In this document: positions 39,224 through 51,195 of the stretch, piece by piece
How positions within the stretch are numbered: position 1 is the first letter of the stretch
Layout: each line of letters begins with the position of its first letter
NCBI GenBank assembly: GCA_038885615.1
Contig: JAVZZP010000001.1
Coordinates: 119,191 to 183,190 of the forward strand
Origin: Candidatus Pacearchaeota archaeon
GTDB taxonomy: Archaea > Nanobdellota > Nanobdellia > Pacearchaeales > GW2011-AR1
Length of the DNA: 64,000 bases
Direction: 5' to 3'
Notes under the pieces: generated by a model
What the model saw: only the letters and a program-made list of their open reading frames with translations
Database searches by the model: none
What the model was told of the DNA's origin: nothing
Made by a program: the position numbers and the translations under genes

Positions 39224-41980
39224 TCATAAAGGAAAAAAACTTTTTCTAGCTGTTACGACTAAAGAACAATCCGTTGGTTCATTCCCAAATTCATCCTTGC
39301 ATTTTATGTAGTATGTTTTATCGTTGTCCCAAGGAGAAACATGAACTCTTGATTTAGCAAAAGGCATATTTGTTCCTTCATTAAATAAATAGTCACAACT
39401 CTCTGTTGAATAAACACAATCAGAAATTCTATTAGTTTCTATTCTTAAATAATCATCGCTGTAAAAAGCTCTTGCTATAAGTGGTGGCGTCGTTACAATT
39501 TCAAGTTCAAATTCTCCTTCTGTTTCTGCTAAATTTCCTCCGGCATCAATGCATTTAACATAATATTTATGTCTTCCATCATAAAGATCTAATCTTTGAG
39601 TGCTTATACCGTCGGCTTTATTTGTATCAAAGAAAGGTATAAAGCTATTTGGATATCCGGTTAATGAGTAGAAGCATGTTGCTTTATTGTCGTTACAACC
39701 AAACAAAGTTTCAACCTTCAATTCAACTGAAAAAGGAGAAAATCCTCCCACAACTTTTGTGTTGTTTGGTGATATTGATTTTATTTTTAGAGGATTTGAA
39801 CCTCTCACAGAATATTTGAAAGATTGCATCATTTTATTTCTTTCTTTTTCCTCTAATCCAGGATTATCTTTACATCTTATATAGTAATCAGTTCCTTCTT
39901 TCTTTATGCCTATTAAGTTTGCTCTACAAGTGTATAGAAGCATAGAATTTATTTCAAAAACATTTTGTACACAGGACATATTGTAAGTCATTTCTTCAAA
40001 GTCCTTATCCTTAAAATCCCATCTGCATTCCGCAGGTTCATCAGTATAAAATTCAACAATAGAAGAGTTTTGATCTGCTGCTATACAATTTTCACTTTCT
40101 ATTGAAACTGCTTTTATTTGTGGGGGAGTGTTGTCTGGAGCATCATCAACACAAAATCTTACCGCATAAGGTGCTTGATTTACATTTCCTTGTGCATCTC
40201 TGCACATAATATATAAAGTCATTTCTTTGCCCATCTCTAAAGTTAAAGAAGAATTTTGCAAATCTTTTGCTCTTGGAACATGAAGAATTGCGGAGAAATT
40301 CTTTCTGTAAGTGCTGTCTTCATCCATATAAGAGAGCATTTCTTCAAAGGTGTTTTTCTTTTCCAAGTCTATCTTGCATTGAGCAGGTTCATTTGTTAAA
40401 ACACCAAATTGTATTGGTGAGAATGCCTTGATACAAGGATTCACATCCTGTCTAACTATTCTAAATCCAGGACCAGGAGGAGAGGTTCTTACATCTGTAT
40501 AAGCATAACCCTCTGTTAGTTTCTCATTCCACGGCATTATTATAGGGGGAGAAACCTCTCTCTTACTATTATCAACACATAACTCATTACCAGTTCCCTG
40601 ATTTACTAGGGCACAGGTTTGTCCTAGGGATTTGCAGCGATATTCAGAACAAGGCAAGCCATCTTGATTGCATAAATCACAATCCTCCCCCCCGTGAGGT
40701 GCCTGCCAAGGAAGACATTTAAATTCAACTTGCTCCTCAAAAGTTTTTGTCTTCTCATAATTTTTTACATAATACCACCAAGCGACTGCGGCACCAATGG
40801 CAACATGAAATGTTTTTGAACCAAGAAATTTAACAAACTTATTTTGAGAGCTAGTTAAATCAAACCAACCTCCTTCTCCTAAAACCTGCTGTGCTGTTTT
40901 AAATGAAATAACTCCTAAAAAAGCTGCTTCAGCAATAGAATCAACCATTTCTTGATTTTCTTTTGCAACAAAGCTTCCGGCTGCTTTAATAAAGCCCCCA
41001 ACTGCTATTGCCCAAGTAAGCCCTTCAACCAAATGCCCAATTCCACCATATTTAAAAATTGAAAGATTTGCTTTTTTAGCCCATTCGAAAGGATAATCAT
41101 CTCTTTTACCTGACCAATAACCCGTCTTTTTACCTTCTGGTGGATCTTGCGTCGGACTATCTCTTTCTCTTGACTCCTCACTTCCTCCTTTTCCATTATC
41201 GCTATTACTTCTATCAACCCGCAAAGCTGTTCCCCCCTTTGTTGGTGTTTGCGCCAAACTAGTAGACTTACTATTATGCACCAAAACCCCCTCGGCAAAA
41301 TACCATTTTCCGCCTAAATCCAAGTCAAAAACCTCAATTCCTTCTGGCTTTTCAACAATTTCAATTTTTTCAATGAAAACTTTTTTTCCGTCAATTCCCA
41401 AAAAATAATCGCTGACTTTTGCGTTGCCGACAGGCTGCCATTTTCCATTAAGCAAAACCTCGTGATTCGGAGTTATTTCAAGCTTGTCATTTATCTTTAA
41501 ATAAGAATATTTCTTTAAAACAATAACATTTCGCACAACCTCTTTTGTCAGCGCGCGCTTTTCAAAATCATAACTAAGCACCTCGTCGCCCGGCCTTATT
41601 TCTGAGATCGGCTTTGTTTGAAGGTTCGCGAGGGTGATGAGAGTTGAAGGAGTGAGACATGATGCTGGGTTTAATTTTCTATTGAGAATTGATACAACAT
41701 CTTCTTCATCAGAAATATCTACATCTTCTTCTATGTTTCGGCTTTCTCCTACCTGCCTATACCATTTATCACCTTGCTTATAATAAACAATAGACTTAAA
41801 AAGAGCGCTTCCAACAAAAGTATCTACGACAATAGTATCATCAGAGATTGTTTTATAATATTCTCTTATTTCCTGGTTATTTCCACTCGCCCTCTCCGCC
41901 ATTCCAATCATATAAGCAAAACTCACAATTCCCAAAATCATTAAAAACATCTGGCTGTAGGCGAGTGCGCACTTGTTCAT
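39224..41980 (-). CDS. giant secreted disulfide-rich surface protein (918 aa) with N-terminal mini-intein, glycine-zipper hydrophobic segment and four C-terminal ~105-aa tandem repeats
   Basis: N-terminal signal/TM (MFLMILGIVSFAYMIGMA). Hint domain at aa 108-236. Hydrophobic Gly/Ala-rich segment at aa ~311-405. C-terminal domain opens FKCLPWQAPHGGEDCDLCNQDGLPCSEYRCKSLGQTC, homologous to aa ~843-880 of the 1341-aa ORF. Four repeats each end in YY(I/V)(K/R)C(K/I)D..GN. 4-nt ATGA overlap with the upstream 774-aa ORF. Confidence 0.8.
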   Translation of the reverse strand: MNKCALAYSQMFLMILGIVSFAYMIGMAERASGNNQEIREYYKTISDDTIVVDTFVGSALFKSIVYYKQGDKWYRQVGESRNIEEDVDISDEEDVVSILNRKLNPASCLTPSTLITLANLQTKPISEIRPGDEVLSYDFEKRALTKEVVRNVIVLKKYSYLKINDKLEITPNHEVLLNGKWQPVGNAKVSDYFLGIDGKKVFIEKIEIVEKPEGIEVFDLDLGGKWYFAEGVLVHNSKSTSLAQTPTKGGTALRVDRSNSDNGKGGSEESRERDSPTQDPPEGKKTGYWSGKRDDYPFEWAKKANLSIFKYGGIGHLVEGLTWAIAVGGFIKAAGSFVAKENQEMVDSIAEAAFLGVISFKTAQQVLGEGGWFDLTSSQNKFVKFLGSKTFHVAIGAAVAWWYYVKNYEKTKTFEEQVEFKCLPWQAPHGGEDCDLCNQDGLPCSEYRCKSLGQTCALVNQGTGNELCVDNSKREVSPPIIMPWNEKLTEGYAYTDVRTSPPGPGFRIVRQDVNPCIKAFSPIQFGVLTNEPAQCKIDLEKKNTFEEMLSYMDEDSTYRKNFSAILHVPRAKDLQNSSLTLEMGKEMTLYIMCRDAQGNVNQAPYAVRFCVDDAPDNTPPQIKAVSIESENCIAADQNSSIVEFYTDEPAECRWDFKDKDFEEMTYNMSCVQNVFEINSMLLYTCRANLIGIKKEGTDYYIRCKDNPGLEEKERNKMMQSFKYSVRGSNPLKIKSISPNNTKVVGGFSPFSVELKVETLFGCNDNKATCFYSLTGYPNSFIPFFDTNKADGISTQRLDLYDGRHKYYVKCIDAGGNLAETEGEFELEIVTTPPLIARAFYSDDYLRIETNRISDCVYSTESCDYLFNEGTNMPFAKSRVHVSPWDNDKTYYIKCKDEFGNEPTDCSLVVTARKSFFPL
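41273..41659 (-). mobile_element. mini-intein / Hint domain (~129 aa, no homing-endonuclease domain) inside the 918-aa ORF
   Basis: Block A C-LTPSTLITLA with Cys1. Block B LEITPNHEVLL (T-x-x-H). Blocks F/G VFDLDLGGKWYFAEGVLVHN with terminal His-Asn, followed by +1 Ser (HN|S). Coordinates calculated from ORF start 41980: aa 108 to aa 236. Confidence 0.7.
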
Positions 41981-44301
41981 TTCTCCTCCACTAAAAATTT
42001 AATTCCTGTTCCATACTCTCCAAGAGATAGTCCTTCTTCTGAGCTTCCACCTGAAACAATTTTTTTGGGAATCTCTTTTCCAGCCAACTTCTCCCACATT
42101 TTCTGAGCAAAAGTTTTATCCTCTTTAATAACTGTTTGCTGCTTTATTTCTTGAGGAAAGCTTAGTTTTTCAACTCTGATTTCCTCTCCGTCACTTGCGA
42201 CAATTACATCACCCACTTTTATTTCTTCTATTTGCTTCAAAGAATATTTATCTTCTTTTTTTAATAAAACATAACTTCCTTTTCTAACCTCTATTCTGTC
42301 ATTAATTAAAATAGAATCCTTTCTTTCTTTAATTACAAATCCTGTTCCTCTTGTTTGATGGCCTTGTTTCAAATTTCCTAGCAAACTGAAAGAAGAATTT
42401 TTGTATTTCCAAGAATAACCATCATCTGTATATTTATCATTTATATTTACATTAGCACCGCAATCACCCAAGGAAGTACAAATTGCATTTACTTTTACTG
42501 CCCAATCGTGCTTTGGAATTAAAGAGTAACTTTTTGAGCTTCCCTTAGGAGGACTTCCTCCTTCCCATTCTAAACACTCGCTCGTTACCTCAACCCCGCT
42601 TTCATTTACCATCTTAAATTCATATTCTTTGTCTCCAAAAGGACCTGCAATACTAGAATATTTTTCGGTTCTTTCTATTATTACCTTGCAAACAGCAGAG
42701 GCCATATTGCAATTTCCTTCACCAAGCCAGAACTTATTTCCAGGAGGAATCAAAGGAACACAAAGACCTCCTTCATCAACCTCGCTTTTATTGAATTTAG
42801 TAACTTTATTCAGAATATCATAATCAAATTCCCATATTCCTTTGCCGCTTGAAACAAAAGGATTGAGTGCTTTTCCTGTAATAACCTTTCCCGTAGGATT
42901 AGTAAAAAAAGGTGCTGCTTGTTGAACAAGTCCTGCTGCTTGCATTGCTGTGTCTACTCCTGACTGTCCTCCAGAAGTTGGATTCTGAAAATAGGGGGTA
43001 GGATTAGAAAAGCTAGATGTTTGCTGTTGTGCTTTGTTCCAATTCAAACCTTCAACATCGTCTATCCAGATACAATCCCTAACATCAATATTTTCACAAT
43101 CTTTCTTTCTCCATTGATAAATACAATCTTGCCAGCGATTTACACGGCAGGCTGCTGTTGAAAATTCTCCTGCAGAAGTCTGAATTCCTGAATGAATGCA
43201 AATCTGTTTTCTATAATCCGCACAAGGATCTGTAACAACTTCTCCGTCTATGCAAATTTGCCTGAAATGCCTTGAACCAACTTTTTCATAACCTTTTCCT
43301 GGTTCAATATCATAAACACACCAGCTTTCTCCGTTTAAGCGGGTTTTTCCACTCATATCTTTACATGTTGTTTTTTTACAGATATACTCTCCTTCTTTTC
43401 CTAAATCTGTTGTTTTCTTTCCATCTTTTCTCGCACAAACACTTCCTAAAAGATAATCGCAGTTTCCACAACTATTACTGCCACCGCTTCTTGGACAAAT
43501 TTCATCTGGATCGGCAACTCTTCCGCGATTCCAAGATTTATCTTTGTCAGAAGAATAAACATTTTCCCTATTTCCACAAGAATCAAACCAATAAACTTTT
43601 CCTTTATAACAACCAACACTTGTTTGCCTAGCACACTCCGTATGTAACTCTTCGGCAGAGCATAGAACATCTTTGTAAAATTTCTTTCCTGTTTCTTGCT
43701 CTAGAATAGATTTATTAACATTTAAAGCAATTACCCCATCTTTTGCCCCACACTCTTTTCTAGTCGTAAATTTGCACTCATTAACTCCTGTTCCTGTATA
43801 GGTGACACAAGCCCCCATATCTTGAGAATTAGCTAAAAAAATACACTCGCCTTCATCTGTAACCGAAGCTCTGAAATCCATTGAAATTCCATAATAAGTA
43901 GAAAGTTTTTTACAACGGGCTAAAGTAACCAATGCTGCTTGGTCAGCAATAATACAACAACCTAAACGACAAGTAGGAATTTCTGAAGCTTTTTTCTCGC
44001 TCCAGGTTCCATTTCTGTCTTGACAAACCTGCTGAGGAACATTTTCCATGCAAAGACCCTCTTTAGAATCATAACAAGTTCCTGTTTTACAAAAAGAGGT
44101 TTGCTCACAGAAAGAGGGGGCAATTCTAAAAGACGAATCACATTCGCTCTCCGCGGAGTTTAAACAAGCTCCTCCTGATTTTGTTCTCTCGCAACAAACA
44201 GAAGGGGTTGAAAGTATGGCGGAAGATAAACTAAGAAGGAATGTTAAAAGAAATAAAATCAAAAATAATTCTTTTATCAATAAGATCCTGCGGATGGCCA
44301 T
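41977..44301 (-). CDS. giant secreted disulfide-rich surface protein (774 aa), paralog of the N-terminal ~560 aa of the 1341-aa ORF
   Basis: Signal peptide (LFLILFLLTFLLSLSSAILS). Shared blocks with the 1341-aa ORF: three C..GCC modules; VYWFDSCGNRENVY ~ VYFVDSCGNIANIY; SCGNCDYLLGSVC ~ SCGNCNYIGGSVC; NGESWCVYDIEPGKGYEKVGSRHF ~ HGESWCVYDINPLSGISPVGSRHF. About 60 Cys. Confidence 0.8.
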   Translation of the reverse strand: MAIRRILLIKELFLILFLLTFLLSLSSAILSTPSVCCERTKSGGACLNSAESECDSSFRIAPSFCEQTSFCKTGTCYDSKEGLCMENVPQQVCQDRNGTWSEKKASEIPTCRLGCCIIADQAALVTLARCKKLSTYYGISMDFRASVTDEGECIFLANSQDMGACVTYTGTGVNECKFTTRKECGAKDGVIALNVNKSILEQETGKKFYKDVLCSAEELHTECARQTSVGCYKGKVYWFDSCGNRENVYSSDKDKSWNRGRVADPDEICPRSGGSNSCGNCDYLLGSVCARKDGKKTTDLGKEGEYICKKTTCKDMSGKTRLNGESWCVYDIEPGKGYEKVGSRHFRQICIDGEVVTDPCADYRKQICIHSGIQTSAGEFSTAACRVNRWQDCIYQWRKKDCENIDVRDCIWIDDVEGLNWNKAQQQTSSFSNPTPYFQNPTSGGQSGVDTAMQAAGLVQQAAPFFTNPTGKVITGKALNPFVSSGKGIWEFDYDILNKVTKFNKSEVDEGGLCVPLIPPGNKFWLGEGNCNMASAVCKVIIERTEKYSSIAGPFGDKEYEFKMVNESGVEVTSECLEWEGGSPPKGSSKSYSLIPKHDWAVKVNAICTSLGDCGANVNINDKYTDDGYSWKYKNSSFSLLGNLKQGHQTRGTGFVIKERKDSILINDRIEVRKGSYVLLKKEDKYSLKQIEEIKVGDVIVASDGEEIRVEKLSFPQEIKQQTVIKEDKTFAQKMWEKLAGKEIPKKIVSGGSSEEGLSLGEYGTGIKFLVEEK

Positions 44302-45044
44302 GGGTAGCTTCTTACAGCAAAATTAAATTTAATTTTTTCATTTTTTTCTATAACTGAATATACCTTAGTATCATCATCTCTTCTCTCCTTTAAAATTTTT
44401 ATGTTAGGATAGTATAACATTTGCTGCATTTGTTCGCTATCACCATAATAAGTTTCAAATTGAATCAATGAAGTCGCTATCATCAATACCTCATATAAAT
44501 TTGTTTTATATTTGTAAGTCAGATCTTTTTTTGAAGAGGTTGTTTCACCGAAAGATAGTTTTATCGGAGCTTTAATTTTAACCTTAACTTCTTTTGGCTC
44601 TATAAAAACCTCGTAAGAGATTTCTCCTCTTTCTACATCAAGGCCTCTCTTCTGTAAATCTTTAATTGAATTCTCATAACATTTTTCAAAATCTTCTTTT
44701 ACTAACTCCTTTAGTGATTGCTCAAATCTATCTTTCAAGAAAGGCTCTTGGTTCACACACGGTTTTAAATATTCGTTTGTATAACAAAGAATAGTATAAT
44801 TTTCCCCCTTATACATATAAGTAAATTTTGGCTCAAGAACCCCTGCTTTTAAAGATAACTCCTGAATTTTCTTTGACAAAGAGCCGTCTAAACAATTTTC
44901 AAAGCCGCTTGTTCTAAAACCAAGACGATTAGTAATAGGTTTAATAAATTCTGGTTTCAGAGAATTGATGATAAAAAAAACTCCAAAAACTAAAATAATT
45001 CCTAAAATAATAAATAAAGCAACTTGCCCCCTTTTGTTTTTCAT
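44277..45044 (-). CDS. class-III signal peptide (archaeal type-IV-pilin-like) protein, 255 aa
   Basis: MKNKRGQVALFIILGIILVFGVFFII: basic n-region, G at -1, Q at +1, ~20-residue hydrophobic stretch, no Glu+5 (archaeal PibD/EppA-type substrate pattern). Paralog of 49080-49841 (shared C..PC pair, DxTKVY...K(I/F)(K/N)FA(I/V)R). Overlaps the downstream 774-aa ORF by 25 nt. Confidence 0.6.
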   Translation of the reverse strand: MKNKRGQVALFIILGIILVFGVFFIINSLKPEFIKPITNRLGFRTSGFENCLDGSLSKKIQELSLKAGVLEPKFTYMYKGENYTILCYTNEYLKPCVNQEPFLKDRFEQSLKELVKEDFEKCYENSIKDLQKRGLDVERGEISYEVFIEPKEVKVKIKAPIKLSFGETTSSKKDLTYKYKTNLYEVLMIATSLIQFETYYGDSEQMQQMLYYPNIKILKERRDDDTKVYSVIEKNEKIKFNFAVRSYPWPSAGSY

Positions 45045-45078: not shown

Positions 45079-48000
45079 TTATTTTAGGTTTATTGGTTTG
45101 ACAGAAATACAAAACTTCTGTTCATTTAGTTTTTTGTCTCTGCATTTAATATAATAAGTTTCATAAGGATTTGCAGAAAAACTATGCGTTTTAGACAAAT
45201 ATTTAGTTGAAGAAGCATTTTGAATATCTCTTAAACTTTTTTCGCAAACTTCGGAATAATTTAAATGATAAAAACACTCTGCGTCCTCATCTGTTTGCAA
45301 GGACAATCTATTACCATCGTAAGCTGTTCTTACTATTATTGGTGGTTGTTCGTCGAAAAAAACCTGGAAATTAAAAGTTGTTTCGTTTATGTTTTTAGCT
45401 TCATCTTCACACTTAACATCAATAGAATATTTTCCTTGTGGCAGCATTAATAATTGACTATGTGCTGTCCCACCAGTTTCATAGAAGTTTATAAATCCGG
45501 AGGAAAAATTTTCAATTTTATAAGAGCAAATCGCATTTCCTAAGCAACCAGAAGTACTAACTGAAAGAGTGAAGTTTTTCTCTTCAATAAAAGTGTTTCT
45601 ATTAATAAGGTTTATATTTATGCCCTCTCTACAGACATTTAAGATGTATTCTTTACTATGAAGATTTGGATTTCTTTTATCAAATTCTGTTTCTTCGGTT
45701 AAGTCAGGTTTATCCTTGCATCTGAAATAAAATTTATTTTGTCCTTCTTCTAAATTTGATAAAAGTGTGAAGCACCTCCATTCTCCAAGGAAAACACTAT
45801 CTTGAGAGGTTAGACAAGTCATATTATTTGGCATTTTCTCGTAACCTTGCTCTCCTGTAACAACATCATATTCCTGGATAAATCTGCATTCTGCCGGCTC
45901 ATTAAGATATAAGATAACTGCGGTCGAATTTGTTCCTTTTTTTAGATAGCTTCCACTAGCAGGTTCAAATCTTTTTAATTCAGCCGGAGTTAAGTCGTAG
46001 CTATCTTTTACTTTTATCTGAACAACAAATTCTGCCTCGTTTACTTGGCCCGCAAAATTCATACATCTTATATAATATTCATTTTCCTCTCCAACAGATA
46101 AACCAAGAGTGTTTGTTGAAGCTGTTTTATCTCTTAAATAAGGAGAAAGAGTTATTTTATGGTGTGTGCCTTCTGCTTTCCCTGTTTGAGGATTTATTTC
46201 AGAAATCATCTCAAATTTCATTTCATCATAGTTTTTTGTGTGTTCATAATCTATCTTGCATGTTGCTGGTTTGTCTGTGATAATACCAAAAGTTAATTCT
46301 TGCCATGGTTCTACTCCGCCGCCATTTGGTCCAGCAATTCTAAATCCGTTGTCTCTTATGTTTGTATATGAGTTCCCCTGTGTTAAAATCTCTGGCCAAG
46401 GAGTTATTTTTGCCTGCCATATTTCATTAATTGTCGCACAATAGCCCGGTTCTCCTTTGTCAACAAAATAATGACATCTTGCTCCTAAAGATTTACATCT
46501 GTATTCAGAGCAGGGCCTTACATCCTCATTGCAAAGCTCGCATTGAGATTCTTTTGGAGGTTTCCAAGATTGGCAGGAGAATTGCATGATGAAATATTCT
46601 TGTTCTTCATATTCATCGAAAAAAGCTGTATAAATAGTGTAAACAATTGCAGCAGCAAGAACAATCCAACCAATTGGATTTGTAGCTAAGAGACCTCCTG
46701 CTGTAGCAAAAAATCCAGAACCTGAAGCTGCTGCAGATCCAAATCCAGTAGACAACCCAATTCCCACGGCAGCACCAACAGCAGCACCGACACTTGCCAT
46801 GAACATATTAAATTGATTTGATTTTCCAGGACTCCAATCCTGGTTTTTGGAAATTAATTTTCCAATTTGATAACCTACAACGGCCCCTACTGCTGCAGCA
46901 CCTAAGACATAACCTCCTGCAGCTAAACCCCCTTTAGAAAAAGCTACAGCTCCGGCCTCCAACCAAGTACTTCCAGTAATAACAGCCAAACTAGTCCCAT
47001 AAGTACCTATAACTCCTGATAAGGCACTAAACCCTCCCAACGCCATTAAACCACTAATTACCATTGCTCCAGTCATTACATCATCAAATCCTCCTCCATC
47101 TCCAGGATTAACATTAGCTTGGCTCGCTAGTTTATTCAAATCAATAACTCCGGTTTGTGGGTCTCCGATAGTTCCTGCCGTATCTCCCGCATCTGCTGTT
47201 AAACCACTTCCTCGCGAAGCGATATCTTTAAGAGATTTTATTTGAGAAATTGATTTTTTTATTGAAGAAATATAATCCTCTGATAAAGTATAATTTTCAC
47301 TTGAAACCTCTTTTTGTTTTCCGGTTTTATCTATTTTCATTCTTTTTACTGTAAAACCTATTGTTGCATTATCATTATTCACTTTCCCAACAATATTAGA
47401 TGAAACTCCGCAAGTTCCAATTGCACGACATCTTTCATTTAAAGCAGCCATTAAAGCAGGCAAATCTTTTGTTTTTATGTTTTGATTAACTCCATCTATA
47501 TTGCATTCCCAATTTCTTTCATGGTCTTTCCAATCACCACAACCTCCTGCGAGAGTGCAATCCCTATGTATTTGACTAATACAAACAAAACTTCCTAAAG
47601 AACAGACTGCTGTTGATTCGAATTCGCTTCCACCATAATTTGCAGAAGAAAGTGTCTTTTGTTGCTGACTAGAAGAAGTTTGACTTGCTTTTCCGACAGG
47701 TGCTTTTGTTGTCCAGAATTGAAAACCTGGAGTAAATCTTGGTACGCAATGAGCTAAAACTTTGTTTTGGTCTTTTCCTAAATCATCAATTGCTCCTTGT
47801 TCAGCATTTGTTTTTTCAGGATCAAAACCAGCAAGAAATTTGTCATCGCTTCTTTTTAATTTGTCTTCTCCATAAAACTCATTAAACATTATGCATTGAG
47901 GGTTTTCATCGCATTTTTGTTTTACCTGCTCATAAGATTCTGCATCATTTGCATTTAAACAAGAACGCCAATCATTTACTAAGCATTTAGCAGAAGTATA

Positions 48001-49104
48001 ACCAGAAGAGCTATCTGTATTTTGGGCACAAATTTCTTGCATAAAATCAGCACAACCTTCAATGGTAATTTGCTCTTCAAAACAACGAGCTATAAAATGC
48101 CTTGAACCTACTGGAGAAATGCCGCTTAAAGGATTAATATCATAAACACACCAGCTTTCTCCGTGTTTTCTTTCTCCGCAATGCAAACTTTTACAAACAT
48201 AATCTCCGAAAGTCGGTTTTGGAGTTTTTCCTTGTTCATATTTTGTGCAAACACTTCCGCCTATATAATTACAATTACCACAAGAAGGGCTTTCTGGAGA
48301 ACAAGAATTCTCTGGAGGAATTGGTTTTTCCCAATAGCTTTGATCATCTGCCTTAGAAGCATCGTAGATATTCGCTATGTTTCCGCATGAATCAACAAAA
48401 TAAACTTGGTCTTTATCTTCAACACAGGTTGTTTTCTTTGTAGGTTTGCAAACAGTTTTTAATTCTTTTGCAGTACATAAATAGCCTGGCTTAAAATCCC
48501 CTGTTTTGCAGTTTTTCTTAGAGGTATAAACACAATTTTTCTCACCTGAAAAATCGCCCGAATCTGAAAGACAAGCTCCCAGTTCTTCTAAACCGAAATA
48601 TTTTTCGCAGCTCTCTCCGCTAGCCAAAGGGACAAATTTTTTTTCAAAATTATACTTGTTTGCTAGCAGGGTGCATTCTCGAGAGTTAGTTAGAGAAACT
48701 TGTGTTCCTAAAATACAACAACCTAACTGACATTGTGGAATGTTGCAACTAGGACTATCACTCCAATTTCCTCCGTTCTCCAAACATTTTTGTTTTGGAG
48801 AGTTCATTGAGCAGGTTCCTGTCGAAGGCGAATAACAGCAACCAATTCTACACTCATCAACAGAAGAACAAGAAGTTAAAAAAAGATTCTCCTTGCATAT
48901 GTCTGACTGAAAAAAAGGAATTTCTTGACAGATTGCTCCTTCTTTTGTTTCACGACAGCAACCCTTAATAGAGTCCTGTTGTGCAGAAACAATTTTTATA
49001 TCCTTTTCCGAAATTAAATAGGCAAAACTGAAAATAGCCAAAACCATTAAACTTATTTCTAAAGTTGCTATTTTCTTTTTCATATTCCGGCAGGCATTAC
49101 ACAA
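45079..49104 (-). CDS. giant secreted disulfide-rich surface protein (1341 aa), the unsplit form of the 774+918 pair
   Basis: Signal peptide (IATLEISLMVLAIFSFAYLI). N-terminal ~560 aa homologous to the 774-aa ORF. Gly/Ala-rich hydrophobic segment at aa ~672-829 (GAMVISGLMALGGFSALSGVIG...AAVGAVVGYQIG...VGAAVGAAVGIGLSTGFGSAAASGSGFFATAGGLLA...). C-terminal ~500 aa homologous to the 918-aa ORF C-terminus (FSCQSWKPPKESQCELCNEDVRPCSEYRCKSLGARC; four YY.(K/R)C.D repeats). No intein. Confidence 0.8.
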   Translation of the reverse strand: MCNACRNMKKKIATLEISLMVLAIFSFAYLISEKDIKIVSAQQDSIKGCCRETKEGAICQEIPFFQSDICKENLFLTSCSSVDECRIGCCYSPSTGTCSMNSPKQKCLENGGNWSDSPSCNIPQCQLGCCILGTQVSLTNSRECTLLANKYNFEKKFVPLASGESCEKYFGLEELGACLSDSGDFSGEKNCVYTSKKNCKTGDFKPGYLCTAKELKTVCKPTKKTTCVEDKDQVYFVDSCGNIANIYDASKADDQSYWEKPIPPENSCSPESPSCGNCNYIGGSVCTKYEQGKTPKPTFGDYVCKSLHCGERKHGESWCVYDINPLSGISPVGSRHFIARCFEEQITIEGCADFMQEICAQNTDSSSGYTSAKCLVNDWRSCLNANDAESYEQVKQKCDENPQCIMFNEFYGEDKLKRSDDKFLAGFDPEKTNAEQGAIDDLGKDQNKVLAHCVPRFTPGFQFWTTKAPVGKASQTSSSQQQKTLSSANYGGSEFESTAVCSLGSFVCISQIHRDCTLAGGCGDWKDHERNWECNIDGVNQNIKTKDLPALMAALNERCRAIGTCGVSSNIVGKVNNDNATIGFTVKRMKIDKTGKQKEVSSENYTLSEDYISSIKKSISQIKSLKDIASRGSGLTADAGDTAGTIGDPQTGVIDLNKLASQANVNPGDGGGFDDVMTGAMVISGLMALGGFSALSGVIGTYGTSLAVITGSTWLEAGAVAFSKGGLAAGGYVLGAAAVGAVVGYQIGKLISKNQDWSPGKSNQFNMFMASVGAAVGAAVGIGLSTGFGSAAASGSGFFATAGGLLATNPIGWIVLAAAIVYTIYTAFFDEYEEQEYFIMQFSCQSWKPPKESQCELCNEDVRPCSEYRCKSLGARCHYFVDKGEPGYCATINEIWQAKITPWPEILTQGNSYTNIRDNGFRIAGPNGGGVEPWQELTFGIITDKPATCKIDYEHTKNYDEMKFEMISEINPQTGKAEGTHHKITLSPYLRDKTASTNTLGLSVGEENEYYIRCMNFAGQVNEAEFVVQIKVKDSYDLTPAELKRFEPASGSYLKKGTNSTAVILYLNEPAECRFIQEYDVVTGEQGYEKMPNNMTCLTSQDSVFLGEWRCFTLLSNLEEGQNKFYFRCKDKPDLTEETEFDKRNPNLHSKEYILNVCREGININLINRNTFIEEKNFTLSVSTSGCLGNAICSYKIENFSSGFINFYETGGTAHSQLLMLPQGKYSIDVKCEDEAKNINETTFNFQVFFDEQPPIIVRTAYDGNRLSLQTDEDAECFYHLNYSEVCEKSLRDIQNASSTKYLSKTHSFSANPYETYYIKCRDKKLNEQKFCISVKPINLK

Positions 49105-49841
49105 GTGCGAATTGCAAATTTAATTTCTTTTTTAGAATCTCCGGCTGAATTTAAAATATAAACTTTAGTAGAGTCACCACCGCGAAATCTATCAATTTTA
49201 ACATCACGGTTCATTGCTTGCCAAACCATTAAATCAAATTCACAAAATGTTGATTCATAATTATTTATTGTCTCGGCAGTTCTTAGAAGAGCTGGAAGAG
49301 ATGATTTAAAGTTTCCTTTTAGATTTGAAATAGAAAGAGATGACTCCCCCTTGGAAAGATGAATATTTGTTTTAAAATCAAATGAAATTTGTTTTTCTTC
49401 AAAAATTAAATTAAAGGAATAATCTTCATATAAAAAAGAATACCCTTTTTTATCATAATTCTCCTTAATTGTTAATAAACATCTAGATAGATCCCTAGAA
49501 ACCTTATTTTCAATCTTTCTTCTTACTGACTCAATAAACAAAGGAGATTGTTGAACACAAGGAAAATAAAACTCAGAGGTAAAGCAAGAAAAAGGTACTC
49601 TTTCTCCACGATAAACATAAAAAACCTTAAACTCTTCTAAAAATTGTTTTTCTTTAAAAAAATTTTCTTCGTGCTTTTTTATAGAGTCTAAAATACAACT
49701 TCTTATGTCTAAAGAAGGGTCTTCTATGCTTTTTTTACTAAAGATAACCTCTGGTTTGATAAAAAAAAATAAAAAAACTGAAAAAAGAAGAATAATTCCA
49801 AGAATAATGAATAATACTGCTTGACCTCTTTTATTTCTCAT
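49080..49841 (-). CDS. class-III signal peptide (archaeal type-IV-pilin-like) protein, 253 aa
   Basis: MRNKRGQAVLFIILGIILLFSVFLFFFI: same KRG|Q + hydrophobic architecture as 44277-45044. Overlaps the 1341-aa ORF by 25 nt. Start lies 20 nt from the stop of the upstream DAC gene. Confidence 0.6.
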   Translation of the reverse strand: MRNKRGQAVLFIILGIILLFSVFLFFFIKPEVIFSKKSIEDPSLDIRSCILDSIKKHEENFFKEKQFLEEFKVFYVYRGERVPFSCFTSEFYFPCVQQSPLFIESVRRKIENKVSRDLSRCLLTIKENYDKKGYSFLYEDYSFNLIFEEKQISFDFKTNIHLSKGESSLSISNLKGNFKSSLPALLRTAETINNYESTFCEFDLMVWQAMNRDVKIDRFRGGDSTKVYILNSAGDSKKEIKFAIRTCVMPAGI

Positions 49842-49861: not shown

Positions 49862-50479
49862 CTATTTAAACTTATTTTTAATATATTTCTTAAAAAAGTA
49901 ATAAGGAACACCTAAAAGAATTATCCCGGGAACAACAGCAATCCCTAAGCCTGGAGCTAAAGCGGAAACTCCAATTGTTGAGAGTGTTCCAACACCAACA
50001 CTTTCCAAAATTTCATTTGCTTCTCTGACCTTTTTTTCAACATTTTTTTCAAGCGCATCTATTTGAACAGTTATCTTTCCTTGCCTAAAAATTTTTATTT
50101 TCTTCTCTTCTTGAGAAATTAAAACAGATAAGCTATCTTTTTCCAAGGAGGCCGAATATGCCGCCGCGTGCCTTGTGCCATACTCTCTAAAAACTCTTTT
50201 TGACTCAATCTTGGCTCCGTAATCTACAACCATTCCTTCCTTGTTTATTATTACCGCTCCATCTATTATTGCTAAAGATAAAAGAATTTTTTTTGCTCCT
50301 GGCTCAAAAATAGAAAAAGGCTCAAATCTCTGCTTCAGCATTTTTTTATACTTACAATTATCTGAAACAACAAACAAGGCTCCCTCCCCTTTTTTTGCTA
50401 TATCAATACCTACAGAAATAAGCAATTCCTCTATTTTTTTTATTTTTTTGATGGATCTATCTGTCATTTTAAAAATCAA
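49862..50479 (-). CDS. diadenylate cyclase (DAC-domain, c-di-AMP synthase) with C-terminal transmembrane segment
   Basis: GALFVV...IDGAVIINKEGMVVDYGAKI...GTRHAAAYSASLEKDSLSVLISQEEKKIKIFRQGKI matches the DAC signature (GALIV...DGAVII...GTRHRAA...DS..IVVSEE.G.IS). C-terminal GVGTLSTIGVSALAPGLGIAVVPGIILLGVPYYFF is hydrophobic. ATGA overlap with PCNA upstream. Confidence 0.7.
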   Translation of the reverse strand: MIFKMTDRSIKKIKKIEELLISVGIDIAKKGEGALFVVSDNCKYKKMLKQRFEPFSIFEPGAKKILLSLAIIDGAVIINKEGMVVDYGAKIESKRVFREYGTRHAAAYSASLEKDSLSVLISQEEKKIKIFRQGKITVQIDALEKNVEKKVREANEILESVGVGTLSTIGVSALAPGLGIAVVPGIILLGVPYYFFKKYIKNKFK

Positions 50480-51195
50480 TCATTATCAACTCTTGGAGCG
50501 AGAATAAAAGAAATACCCAAACTGTCTCCTGGAAAAACAAGTTTTAAAGGATAATTATCAGAAAACATAATTTTTACCTTTTCAGAAATTTTAGCGGCTT
50601 TTATAAATTTCATTAAATATTCAAGAGAATATTTGGCTCTTGCCCCGCCTTTGAATTCATAATTAGAAGGAAAATCGACCTTAACAGAACTTAAAGAACC
50701 TTTCGCTTCTATTCTAAAAAAACCATCTTTAACGGAAAAAGAACATGAATCTGCAACAACGTAGCAATCTTCTATTGTTCTTGAAAAGTCTTGTGAAGAA
50801 ATCTCTCCTTCAACTGAGAATTCCAAAGAAGGCTCCTTTTTTTCTTCAATGTCTGTTTCTATTAAAGAAAGATTGAAAGTTCTCTTTGACGAATCCTCCA
50901 AGGAAATTTTTAGTGTATTTTCATCTCTTTCAAATTCAACAAAATCAGAGTTATAGGCCCTTTTTAAAATCCTTTTTAAGTCTTCTAAATTAACAGCCAA
51001 TTCGTCATTTTCTGCTTCATAAATTGCAAAACTCTCTTTTGGAACCTTAAAAATAACCATTGCAACATTTGCAGGATCAACCGCACTTAAAGAAAGCCCT
51101 TCTTCTAAAAACTTTAATTTTACTTCTACAACTAATTCAGAAATTATATTAAGTGCGTCAATAAAAGATTTTGGATTTTCTAGTTTAATCTTCAT
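50476..51195 (-). CDS. pcn: DNA polymerase sliding clamp PCNA
   Basis: 239 aa; N-terminus MKIKLENPKSFIDALNIISELVVEVKLKFLEEGLSLSAVDPANVAMVIFKVPKESF typical of archaeal PCNA; two-domain length. Confidence 0.8.
   Translation of the reverse strand: MKIKLENPKSFIDALNIISELVVEVKLKFLEEGLSLSAVDPANVAMVIFKVPKESFAIYEAENDELAVNLEDLKRILKRAYNSDFVEFERDENTLKISLEDSSKRTFNLSLIETDIEEKKEPSLEFSVEGEISSQDFSRTIEDCYVVADSCSFSVKDGFFRIEAKGSLSSVKVDFPSNYEFKGGARAKYSLEYLMKFIKAAKISEKVKIMFSDNYPLKLVFPGDSLGISFILAPRVDND

Follow-up and report, generated by a model that had tools for sequence, protein, structure and literature searches.

Glycine zippers are packing motifs of the GxxxGxxxG type in transmembrane (TM) helices (Kim et al. 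2005, PNAS 102:14278, as cited in PMC10240207), and by the account that PMC10240207 gives of Kim et al. 2004/2005 they are over-represented in channel-forming helices. The two-helix (2TM) zipper hairpins of SlyB and YfgH oligomerise into rings (bioRxiv 10.64898/2025.12.22.696046), and in Tde1, Tse4 and TelE the zippers permeabilise target membranes (PMC10240207; PMC10434224). In such toxins the zipper is terminal in a secreted effector, adaptor or immunity genes are present, and the distribution is patchy (PMC10240207; PMC10434224). We have analysed a stretch of 64,000 nucleotides from a Candidatus Pacearchaeota archaeon (contig JAVZZP010000001.1, positions 119,191 to 183,190; hereafter the window, with positions counted from its first letter). 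A 1341-aa open reading frame (ORF) on its minus strand, at 45079..49104, encodes a giant protein with a glycine- and alanine-rich hydrophobic block in the middle. The G/A-rich stretch is real, and most likely it is the conserved helical core, embedded in the archaeon's own membrane, of giant two-lobed surface proteins that form a family of Pacearchaeota and Woesearchaeota not described before.

The likeness of this block to the zipper toxins and to SlyB/YfgH is one of motif and mechanism, not of membership. As in TM glycine zippers generally, two helices of the giant, H3 and H4, carry GxxxGxxxG in register within predicted long hydrophobic helices; however, the zipper is a motif class and not a homologous family, and the motif of the giant lies midway in a 1300-aa protein between large ectodomains. 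In the 2TM zipper lipoproteins (SlyB, YfgH, OsmB; PF05433-type), as in both structure models of the giant described below, a short turn connects a pair of neighbouring zipper helices. On the other hand, the giant is an archaeal protein of a single membrane with no lipobox and no profile match at E=10, and its hairpin is flanked by the further helices H1, H6 and TM0 and by giant ectodomains. With the zipper toxins (VacA N-terminus, Tse4, Tde1, TelE, BTH_I2691) the block shares G/A-rich hydrophobic helices and tandem GxxxG, but it is internal between ectodomains, follows an N-in/C-out helix and belongs to a lineage-wide syntenic cassette. FtsX/MacB-type or SecDF-type polytopic proteins, which likewise carry huge external domains on a small membrane core and cross the membrane an even number of times between those domains, are unlike the giant in that there is no sequence or fold relation and no ATPase or transporter partner nearby, the partner being pilin-like.

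Glycine-zipper membrane helices are thus a known kind of element. Their setting is what is new: the family, not described before, comprises giant surface proteins of a whole archaeal lineage, with an unmatched N-lobe, a conserved N-terminal helix, pilin-like partners and a recurrent fused/split pair of paralogues. Castelle et al. 2021 described Module 98, comprising 51 mostly unannotated protein families common to Pacearchaeota and Woesearchaeota, and many lineage-specific families of DPANN archaea are predicted to be membrane-bound or extracellular (PMC8204110). The giant family has the same taxonomic distribution as Module 98 and plausibly belongs to a set such as this one, but that paper has no description of architecture, topology or zippers. 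Our literature searches on Pacearchaeota/DPANN surface proteins found no description of the giant family, and a search combining DPANN with glycine zipper found no literature.

Conserved predicted helices of the central block

A sequence-only reading of the window had placed glycine-zipper-like segments at 46618-47091 (aa 672-829 of the giant) and at 40766-41050 (aa 311-405 of a 918-aa ORF), and both coordinates are exact. All features given here are on the minus strand. In the giant the block was delimited by translation, composition and homologue comparison. Its 158 residues include 19% Gly and 17.7% Ala, and G/A/S/V/I/L make up 68% of it against 37% of the rest of the protein, which agrees with the dominance of small residues read from it before; charged residues amount to about 5%, against about 24% elsewhere in the giant. 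The GxxxG motifs that had been quoted are present, but in the single sequence their number scarcely exceeds that expected from composition (7 observed against 5.4±1.9 in shuffles, P=0.27). For small-xxx-small pairs the count was 38 against 31.7 in shuffles (P=0.03), and for a broader zipper pattern in the style of Kim 2005 it was 12 against 6.3 (P=0.02). Conservation and model confidence are both low for the first of the quoted motifs (aa 679-700, in H1) and for the G/S-rich end of the third (aa 786-807).

The composition of the block, its in-register glycines, and the family distribution and gene layout presented further below were read directly from sequence. In an alignment of 82 homologues with 28-60% identity to the giant, the glycines of H3 (aa 727-754; 46843..46926) are kept in register: G731 in 92%, G740 in 61% (88% small), G744 in 76% (96% small) and G748 in 84% (94% small), so that G740, G744 and G748 are each separated by three residues. 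The same spacing recurs in H4 (aa 762-785; 46750..46821) with G773 (80%), G777 (79%) and G781 (47%, 73% small). Between the two helices lies a conserved turn (aa 755-761; 46822..46842) with the family consensus N-Q-G/D-W-S-P-G-K, and the conserved positions here are K753 at the end of H3 and G756, W757, S758, P759 and G760. The family-wide glycine profile of H3 has period-4 character (P=0.008). The helical moment at 100 degrees per residue was non-significant for Gly and for small residues in both H3 and H4; that the period-4 test alone is significant is as expected for GxxxG repeats. Accordingly, we consider the zipper real, because the glycines are kept in register across the family and are spaced with period 4 in H3. 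An uncharged central block is found at the equivalent position in essentially all homologues sampled, and its length varies from about 70 to about 350 aa. The stretches aa 640-725 and aa 786-807 are little conserved and highly variable in length.

The helices themselves are predicted, by hydrophobicity scales and by two concordant AlphaFold2 (AF2) models. The giant was modelled as two overlapping halves using the family alignment, aa 8-840 with a mean predicted local distance difference test score (pLDDT) of 80.4 and aa 640-1341 with a mean of 82.7. The helices coincide in the two models, with H3 spanning about 725/728-754, H4 759-785 and H6 810-829; across the models the pLDDT is 68-88 for H3 and about 83-88 for H4. 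AlphaFold modelling had been suggested as a check for helical hairpins, and H3-H4 forms one in each model. Together with the family conservation, these predicted helices bear out the earlier description of a genuine hydrophobic, small-residue-rich helical region with true zipper helices. H6 (aa 810-829; 46618..46677) is an ordinary I/V/L-rich TM helix. In both models H1 and the G/S-rich stretches between helices have pLDDT <50, among them the variable G/S/A-rich linker between H4 and H6 (aa 786-809; 46678..46749), which has a median length of 16 aa in the family.

Pfam, NCBIfam and PDB sequence searches with the giants, the isolated block and the partner proteins gave nothing significant. The Pfam glycine-zipper families (Gly-zipper_Omp, Gly-zipper_OmpA, Gly-zipper_YMGG, Rick_17kDa_Anti) were not matched at E up to 10 by aa 672-829, aa 640-860 or the segment of the 918-aa protein in hmmscan; the whole proteins gave no match to them in Pfam either. 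Neither the giant proteins nor the block matched a transporter or channel family. The NCBIfam model BTH_I2691, a type VI secretion system (T6SS) effector, gave 14.3 bits against a cutoff of 150 (E 0.011) over aa 660-826, confined to the low-complexity block. When aa 722-832 were compared with 1.84 billion representative proteins by phmmer, the nine matches (best E 1.5e-8) were all members of the family or fragments of them, and the block is therefore without detectable relatives outside the family. One homologue, P0012, is named 'sulfite exporter TauE/SafE family protein' at NCBI. TauE/SafE was matched neither by P0012 in NCBIfam nor by the window proteins in NCBIfam and, at E up to 10, in Pfam, and the name is probably a composition-driven mis-annotation of G/A-rich helices.

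Topology and the N-terminal helix

Insertion energies were calculated with the Hessa biological scale, and windows with an apparent free energy of insertion (dGapp, in kcal/mol) of 3.5 or less were taken as TM-like. In the giant the values are 0.8 for TM0, the N-terminal helix, 1.7 for H1, 5.5 for H2, 3.4 for H3, 2.6 for H4, 5.2 for H5 and -0.3 for H6. H3, H4 and H6 are always present in the family, with median values of 3.0, 3.1 and -0.55. For the best helix upstream of H3 the family median is 4.0, compared with 9.6 when the best window is sought in 500 aa of ectodomain; in the giant this position is taken by H1 (aa 677-699; 47008..47076), a G/A/L-rich and weakly conserved segment that is the candidate first TM helix of the block. 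None of the 82 homologues has a TM-like window between H4 and H6. Based on this absence and on the insertion energies, the ground plan of the block would be H1, H3, H4 and H6. Four passes would be an even number, as two Cys-rich lobes on the outside would demand.

The two domains that flank the block in the 1341-aa protein contain dozens of invariant Cys and have confident beta-rich folds in the models, and both are almost certainly extracytoplasmic. The N-ectodomain (aa 42-640; 47185..48981) has about 50 invariant or near-invariant Cys, several of them in Cys-Cys pairs, and a pLDDT mostly >90. It matched no Pfam family and no PDB sequence, and Foldseek found no significant match for the model of the N-half in the PDB (best E 0.75) or among viral models in BFVD (best E 0.18), so that a viral-fusogen-like or known-adhesin fold was rejected for this lobe. 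It appears to be an undescribed disulfide-rich fold. The junction behind H6 (aa 830-880; 46465..46617) consists of an acidic stretch, the strand EYFIMQF and a conserved C-x2-W-x-P-P...C-x2-C...C-x4-C cluster that opens the C-ectodomain. The C-ectodomain (45082..46464) was modelled over the C-terminal 500 aa as 4-5 immunoglobulin (Ig)/fibronectin type III-like beta-sandwiches with conserved Cys pairs and pLDDT >90. Its Foldseek matches in the PDB (PTP-delta, cadherins, S-layer proteins and GhpA, with E down to 7e-13) are of the generic Ig-like kind and include adhesion receptors. With the N-lobe present in the model, the strand behind H6 (aa 831-839) has a pLDDT of 92-96; in the model without the N-lobe it is a coil of lower confidence (57-74). 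Since the strand is ordered only when the N-lobe is present, we infer that it docks on the N-lobe and that both ends of the block lie on one side of the membrane.

The longest ORF of the giant begins at a TTG (nt 49104), while the public record, 'hypothetical protein QXX68_01135, Ca. Pacearchaeota archaeon' (P0001, 100% match), starts seven codons downstream at an ATG (M8, nt 49083; MKKKIATLE) and has 1334 aa. The ATG is the more plausible start because it yields a typical basic n-region. Behind it lies TM0 (aa 10-31; 49012..49077), which was identified by its conservation, charge, AF2 helix (pLDDT 74-82), insertion energy and motif segregation. K+R before the helix is 3.5 and the net charge after it is negative, an N-in/C-out orientation. 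For a block that follows such a helix, co-translational insertion into the cell's own membrane is the default expectation from the general Sec pathway. The conserved residues of TM0 are E/Q16 (78/81 sequences), F25, F27 (87%) and Y/F29, and the motif F-[AS]-F-[SA]-[YF] plus a membrane-embedded E/Q is unusual for a signal peptide. There is no lipobox Cys at the N-terminus of the giant; a K-rich n-region and a long helix are followed instead by V-S-A (aa 39-41; 48982..48990), a possible signal-peptidase site with 98% conserved Ala that lies 7 residues before the first Cys-Cys. In some homologues an insertion of 25-30 aa separates V-S-A from the TM0 helix. From its sequence, TM0 could be a signal anchor, retained as a fifth helix, or a specialised signal peptide.

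Taken as a whole, these data make it fairly probable that the block is a resident membrane module of four to five helices, packed by glycine zippers and carrying the two external lobes of a giant surface protein. In such a module, the N-in/C-out TM0 would start export and the Cys-rich N-ectodomain of 600 aa would be translocated. The chain would then make an even number of passes, in all likelihood four (H1, H3, H4 and H6), through the membrane of the archaeon itself, before the Ig-like C-ectodomain is translocated in turn, and both lobes would come to lie outside, docked together just above the membrane. The anchor, of the usual hydrophobic kind, would be H6. With too few bulky side chains for stability on their own, H3 and H4 would form a helical hairpin packed tightly through the conserved period-4 glycines, against each other and against H1, H6 and TM0. 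H3 and H4 may further pack against the same module in a paralogous giant or against the N-terminal helix of a pilin-like partner, in which case the zippers would also mediate oligomerisation. The G/A/S/T-rich stretches between the helices would be flexible loops of variable length.

Several observations weigh against this account. H1, H3 and H4 are marginal in hydrophobicity, H1 was modelled with the low confidence given above in both models, and a fourth helix upstream of H3 reaches a dGapp of 3.5 or less in 36/82 homologues (70% at 5.0 or less). The positive-inside rule does not confirm the four passes: the H3-H4 loop, which the four-pass topology places outside, is the sole net-positive loop (+0.65), and the other loops of the block are near neutral. 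Cleavage of TM0 at V-S-A is a possibility, judging from the sequence. Finally, the docking of the lobes and the helix-helix contacts are deduced from confidence values alone.

The cassette, its partners and the split paralogues

Between nt 39224 and 49841 of the window, five co-directional genes encode proteins of 253, 1341, 255, 774 and 918 aa. The first and third are partner proteins: partner 1 (253 aa; 49080..49841), recognised by its ORF, its N-terminal pattern and its position upstream of the giant, begins with the class-III-signal-like sequence MRNKRGQAVLFIILG, and partner 2 (255 aa; 44277..45044) is its paralogue (28% mutual identity, E 6e-22). Across the family, the pattern [KR][KRG][GAS]Q[IVL]T[IL]F[IV]II is found at the N-terminus of 89/107 partner ORFs with Gln7 invariant, and by this sequence criterion the N-termini follow the archaeal class III (prepilin-type) signal pattern. 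The partners are of about 255 aa with four conserved Cys, and neither Pfam nor the solved structures gave a match for them.

The cassette lies directly downstream of the genes for a membrane-anchored DAC-domain (diadenylate cyclase-like) protein (49862-50479, minus) and PCNA (50476-51195, minus). PCNA adjacency is kept in distant Pacearchaeota contigs (L001:1708-2436, L002:5742-6470, L003:264-992). The GC content of the window is about 31%; over the giant genes (40001-44000 and 46001-48000) it is 0.36-0.38, against about 0.30-0.32 elsewhere, which probably reflects Gly/Ala-rich coding and not foreign origin.

At least 250 homologues of the giant were found by a word-indexed search, and the family occupies at least 489 loci in species-representative genomes. 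Nearly all of the 79 loci listed bear the name Pacearchaeota, Woesearchaeota or Nanoarchaeota in their titles; besides a few with just 'archaeon' or 'uncultured archaeon' as the title, there is a single one labelled Paceibacterota. This last one (L079, DAOTCN010000002.1, a 379-kb contig labelled 'Candidatus Paceibacterota bacterium', a bacterium of the candidate phyla radiation, CPR) carries the otherwise archaeal cassette (C, partner, N602, C809), and taxonomic mislabelling or mis-binning is the likeliest explanation for its bacterial label. Distant relatives keep the order PCNA, small gene, gene of about 260 aa, giant, gene of about 260-280 aa, giant. We surveyed the cassette in 82 loci (L001-L082) with our own hidden Markov models (HMMs). 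Its recurrent layout is partner, full-length giant with both lobes (median 1300 aa), partner, N-only protein (about 480-780 aa) and C-only protein (about 680-940 aa). The complete ORFs comprise 51 full-length, 51 N-only and 42 C-only proteins, a partner lies directly upstream of 89 of the 102 N-bearing ORFs, and two or three paralogous modules are always encoded together. With our HMM for the TM block, no more than 24 of the roughly 130 ORFs that bear a block were recovered, presumably through composition filtering; because of this low recovery, the presence of a block in the loci was scored by hydrophobicity. In two loci a nucleotidyltransferase/HepT-like toxin-antitoxin pair lies within the cassette, between the third partner and the third N-only giant gene (L002:16637-17240, L003:11159-11762), which shows that some genomes carry three modules. 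In the loci examined, no immunity-like or delivery-system genes were seen; the neighbours are pilin-like partners, PCNA and the DAC-domain protein. A syntenic cassette that extends throughout the lineage fits a core envelope component. An identity of the giants as the S-layer was considered too but found no support, given that L002 encodes a distinct S_layer_C protein close to the cassette.

The remaining two genes of the window are a split counterpart of the giant. The N-only 774-aa protein (41977..44301) consists of a generic signal peptide, the N-ectodomain and a 140-aa tail, and is 31% identical to aa 49-412 of the giant (E 2e-53); it has no TM block, and its sole TM-like window is the signal. 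The C-only 918-aa protein (39224..41980), 31% identical to aa 814-1332 of the giant (E 8e-60), consists of a TM0-like helix, a Hint domain, a linker, a degenerate block and the C-ectodomain. A broken pseudogene was rejected for this pair, because both ORFs are intact and annotated, the invariant Cys motifs are kept, and the arrangement of N-only and C-only genes recurs in dozens of genomes. The segment of the 918-aa protein (aa 311-405; 40766..41050) had been read as analogous to that of the giant. It is indeed homologous and aligns to H3-H4-H6, but it contains no GxxxG and is not a glycine zipper; its best windows are weakly hydrophobic (dGapp of 4.1 for H3' and 6.9 for H6'), and its H4 equivalent contains D, E and K. 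Likewise, the position between disulfide-rich extracellular domains that had been given for both segments holds for the 1341-aa protein but not for the 918-aa protein, in which the Hint domain and the linker lie on one side and the C-ectodomain on the other.

How the TM0 motif is distributed among the split genes links it to the block. In its strict form the motif is present in 24/51 full-length, 21/42 C-only, 1/49 N-only and 0/104 partner proteins. The N-only proteins have short generic cleavable signals whose closing AxA site lies immediately in front of the first Cys-Cys, where V-S-A has its equivalent place in the giant. The C-only proteins keep the TM0 helix (29/31) with a reduced block of one or two TM-like windows, and full-length proteins mostly have three or four such windows in the block. 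In the split genes the motif thus stays with the block and the C-lobe while the N-lobe becomes an ordinary secreted protein, which argues that TM0 is functionally linked to the block. By these sequence comparisons, the membrane helices, TM0 and block together, appear to evolve as one unit.

The 918-aa protein is named 'Hint domain-containing protein' at NCBI. Its Hint (mini-intein-like) domain (aa 108-236; 41273..41659), complete and located between the N-terminal helix and the degenerate block, matches Pfam Vint with 28.8 bits (cutoff 27), and PT-HINT, Hint and Intein_splicing below their cutoffs. Its motifs are Cys108, T-P-N-H at 170-173 and H-N at 235-236, followed by Ser237. The only other proteins in which a local phmmer search found this domain are the C-only ones of the two genomes closest to that of the window (L006:5904-7472, L012:11361-14108). 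With aa 1-420 of the protein, the word-indexed search gave four weak Hint matches and missed the protein's own record, so that 'no relatives' is unsafe for this region. The 140-aa tail of the 774-aa protein (41980-42411) contains a Hint-N-like 'IEEIKVGDVIVASDG' motif and has neither Cys1 nor TxxH; such a tail recurs in the N-only proteins of the L006 and L012 genomes and, more weakly, of L005. From these motifs, one can conceive of a Hint domain that processes the split halves or joins them.

Alternative functions and biological meaning

A different function for a block resident in the same membrane would be an oligomeric channel, in which the zipper hairpins of several copies form a ring or pore. 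The copies would be the full-length giant and its split or fused paralogue, possibly with partner helices, and the lobes would form a gated vestibule that takes up host-derived molecules, comparable to the zipper helices of VacA, MscS-type channels and SlyB rings. A channel would suit the GxxxGxxxG that is conserved on two adjacent helices, and the over-representation of zippers in channel-forming helices and the rings of 2TM hairpins point the same way, the former as recounted in PMC10240207 and the latter from bioRxiv 10.64898/2025.12.22.696046. Nevertheless, intramolecular packing explains the conserved glycines equally well. Conserved polar residues do stand in or beside the membrane helices (E/Q16 in TM0 and K753), and the constant co-encoding of paralogous modules is compatible with a hetero-oligomer, but no transporter or channel family was matched and the zipper is gone from the C-only paralogue of the window, a strange loss for a subunit that the pore could not do without. 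We consider such a channel unlikely, though worth keeping in mind.

The sequence-only reading had proposed pore-forming segments rather than simple anchors, which insert into or bridge to a host membrane. Here, membrane-active helices like those of toxins or fusion peptides would stay outside the cell and enter the host membrane while TM0 and/or H6 hold the protein in the symbiont, so that it bridges to the host or perforates it. In composition the block does resemble glycine-zipper toxins, and likewise viral fusion peptides, and H1, H3 and H4 are too weakly hydrophobic to be called autonomous TM helices with confidence. However, H6 is an ordinary, strongly hydrophobic TM helix beside these three marginal G/A-rich ones, and neither a match to a toxin family above its cutoff nor, in the loci examined, a toxin context was found. 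Tde1, Tse4 and TelE provide precedents for permeabilisation by zippers (PMC10240207; PMC10434224), and the BTH_I2691 match (E 0.011, 14 bits) could be taken as another hint, but that match is far below the cutoff of 150 and covers the low-complexity block only, the exhaustive search found no relatives of the block outside the family, the N-half has no significant fold match and the C-half has only generic Ig-like ones. The positive-inside signal, which misfits a simple four-pass model, would also be in favour of host insertion. Against this, a single pass by H6 would leave the Cys-rich Ig-like C-lobe in the cytoplasm, and there is no amphipathic shield to keep 150 uncharged residues soluble outside the cell. 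The N-in/C-out TM0 speaks for the archaeon's own membrane, the presumed docking of the post-H6 strand on the N-lobe argues for both block ends on one side of one membrane, and lineage-wide synteny beside PCNA and other housekeeping genes, without a patchy distribution, is unlike polymorphic toxins. Insertion into a host membrane is accordingly quite improbable in our view, and glycine-zipper composition alone is no evidence for a pore-forming toxin.

That the block is a flexible low-complexity G/A/S-rich linker, with only H6 or nothing in the membrane, is very improbable: its very variable length, the large parts with pLDDT <50 and a single-sequence GxxxG count no higher than composition predicts would fit a linker, but the glycines, the W-S-P-G turn and the hydrophobic positions stay in register across sequences as divergent as those aligned here, H3, H4 and H6 are long helices of moderate to high confidence in two models, charged residues are too strictly excluded, and without membrane passes the mature protein would be unanchored if TM0 is cleaved.

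The resident module remains the reading that we prefer, and what was an odd hydrophobic stretch is now a defined protein family with an N-terminal helix, an N-lobe, a zipper membrane module and an Ig-like C-lobe. For membrane assembly, G740, G744, G748, G773, G777, E/Q16 and K753 are singled out as the residues of interest. We know of no cultured representative of Pacearchaeota or Woesearchaeota. These archaea are abundant and have small genomes, and symbiosis is predicted for the ones whose metabolism is most reduced (PMC8204110). The cassette is a tangible candidate for the chief structure of the envelope or of host interaction in both groups, where the step to function is speculation. In its furthest form, which we regard as a long shot, the two or three paralogous giants, each with its pilin-like partner, would make up a host-contact organelle of Pacearchaeota and Woesearchaeota. 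A hetero-oligomeric conduit through the membrane of the symbiont would then be built from the zipper hairpins of the paralogues, the TM0 helices with their conserved E/Q and, after processing, the partners' N-terminal helices; the Cys-rich N-lobes and Ig-like C-lobes would reach and bind the host envelope, and in one sub-clade the Hint domain would process or re-join the split halves. If such a conduit is true, it would be the long-sought route by which these DPANN archaea acquire lipids or metabolites.

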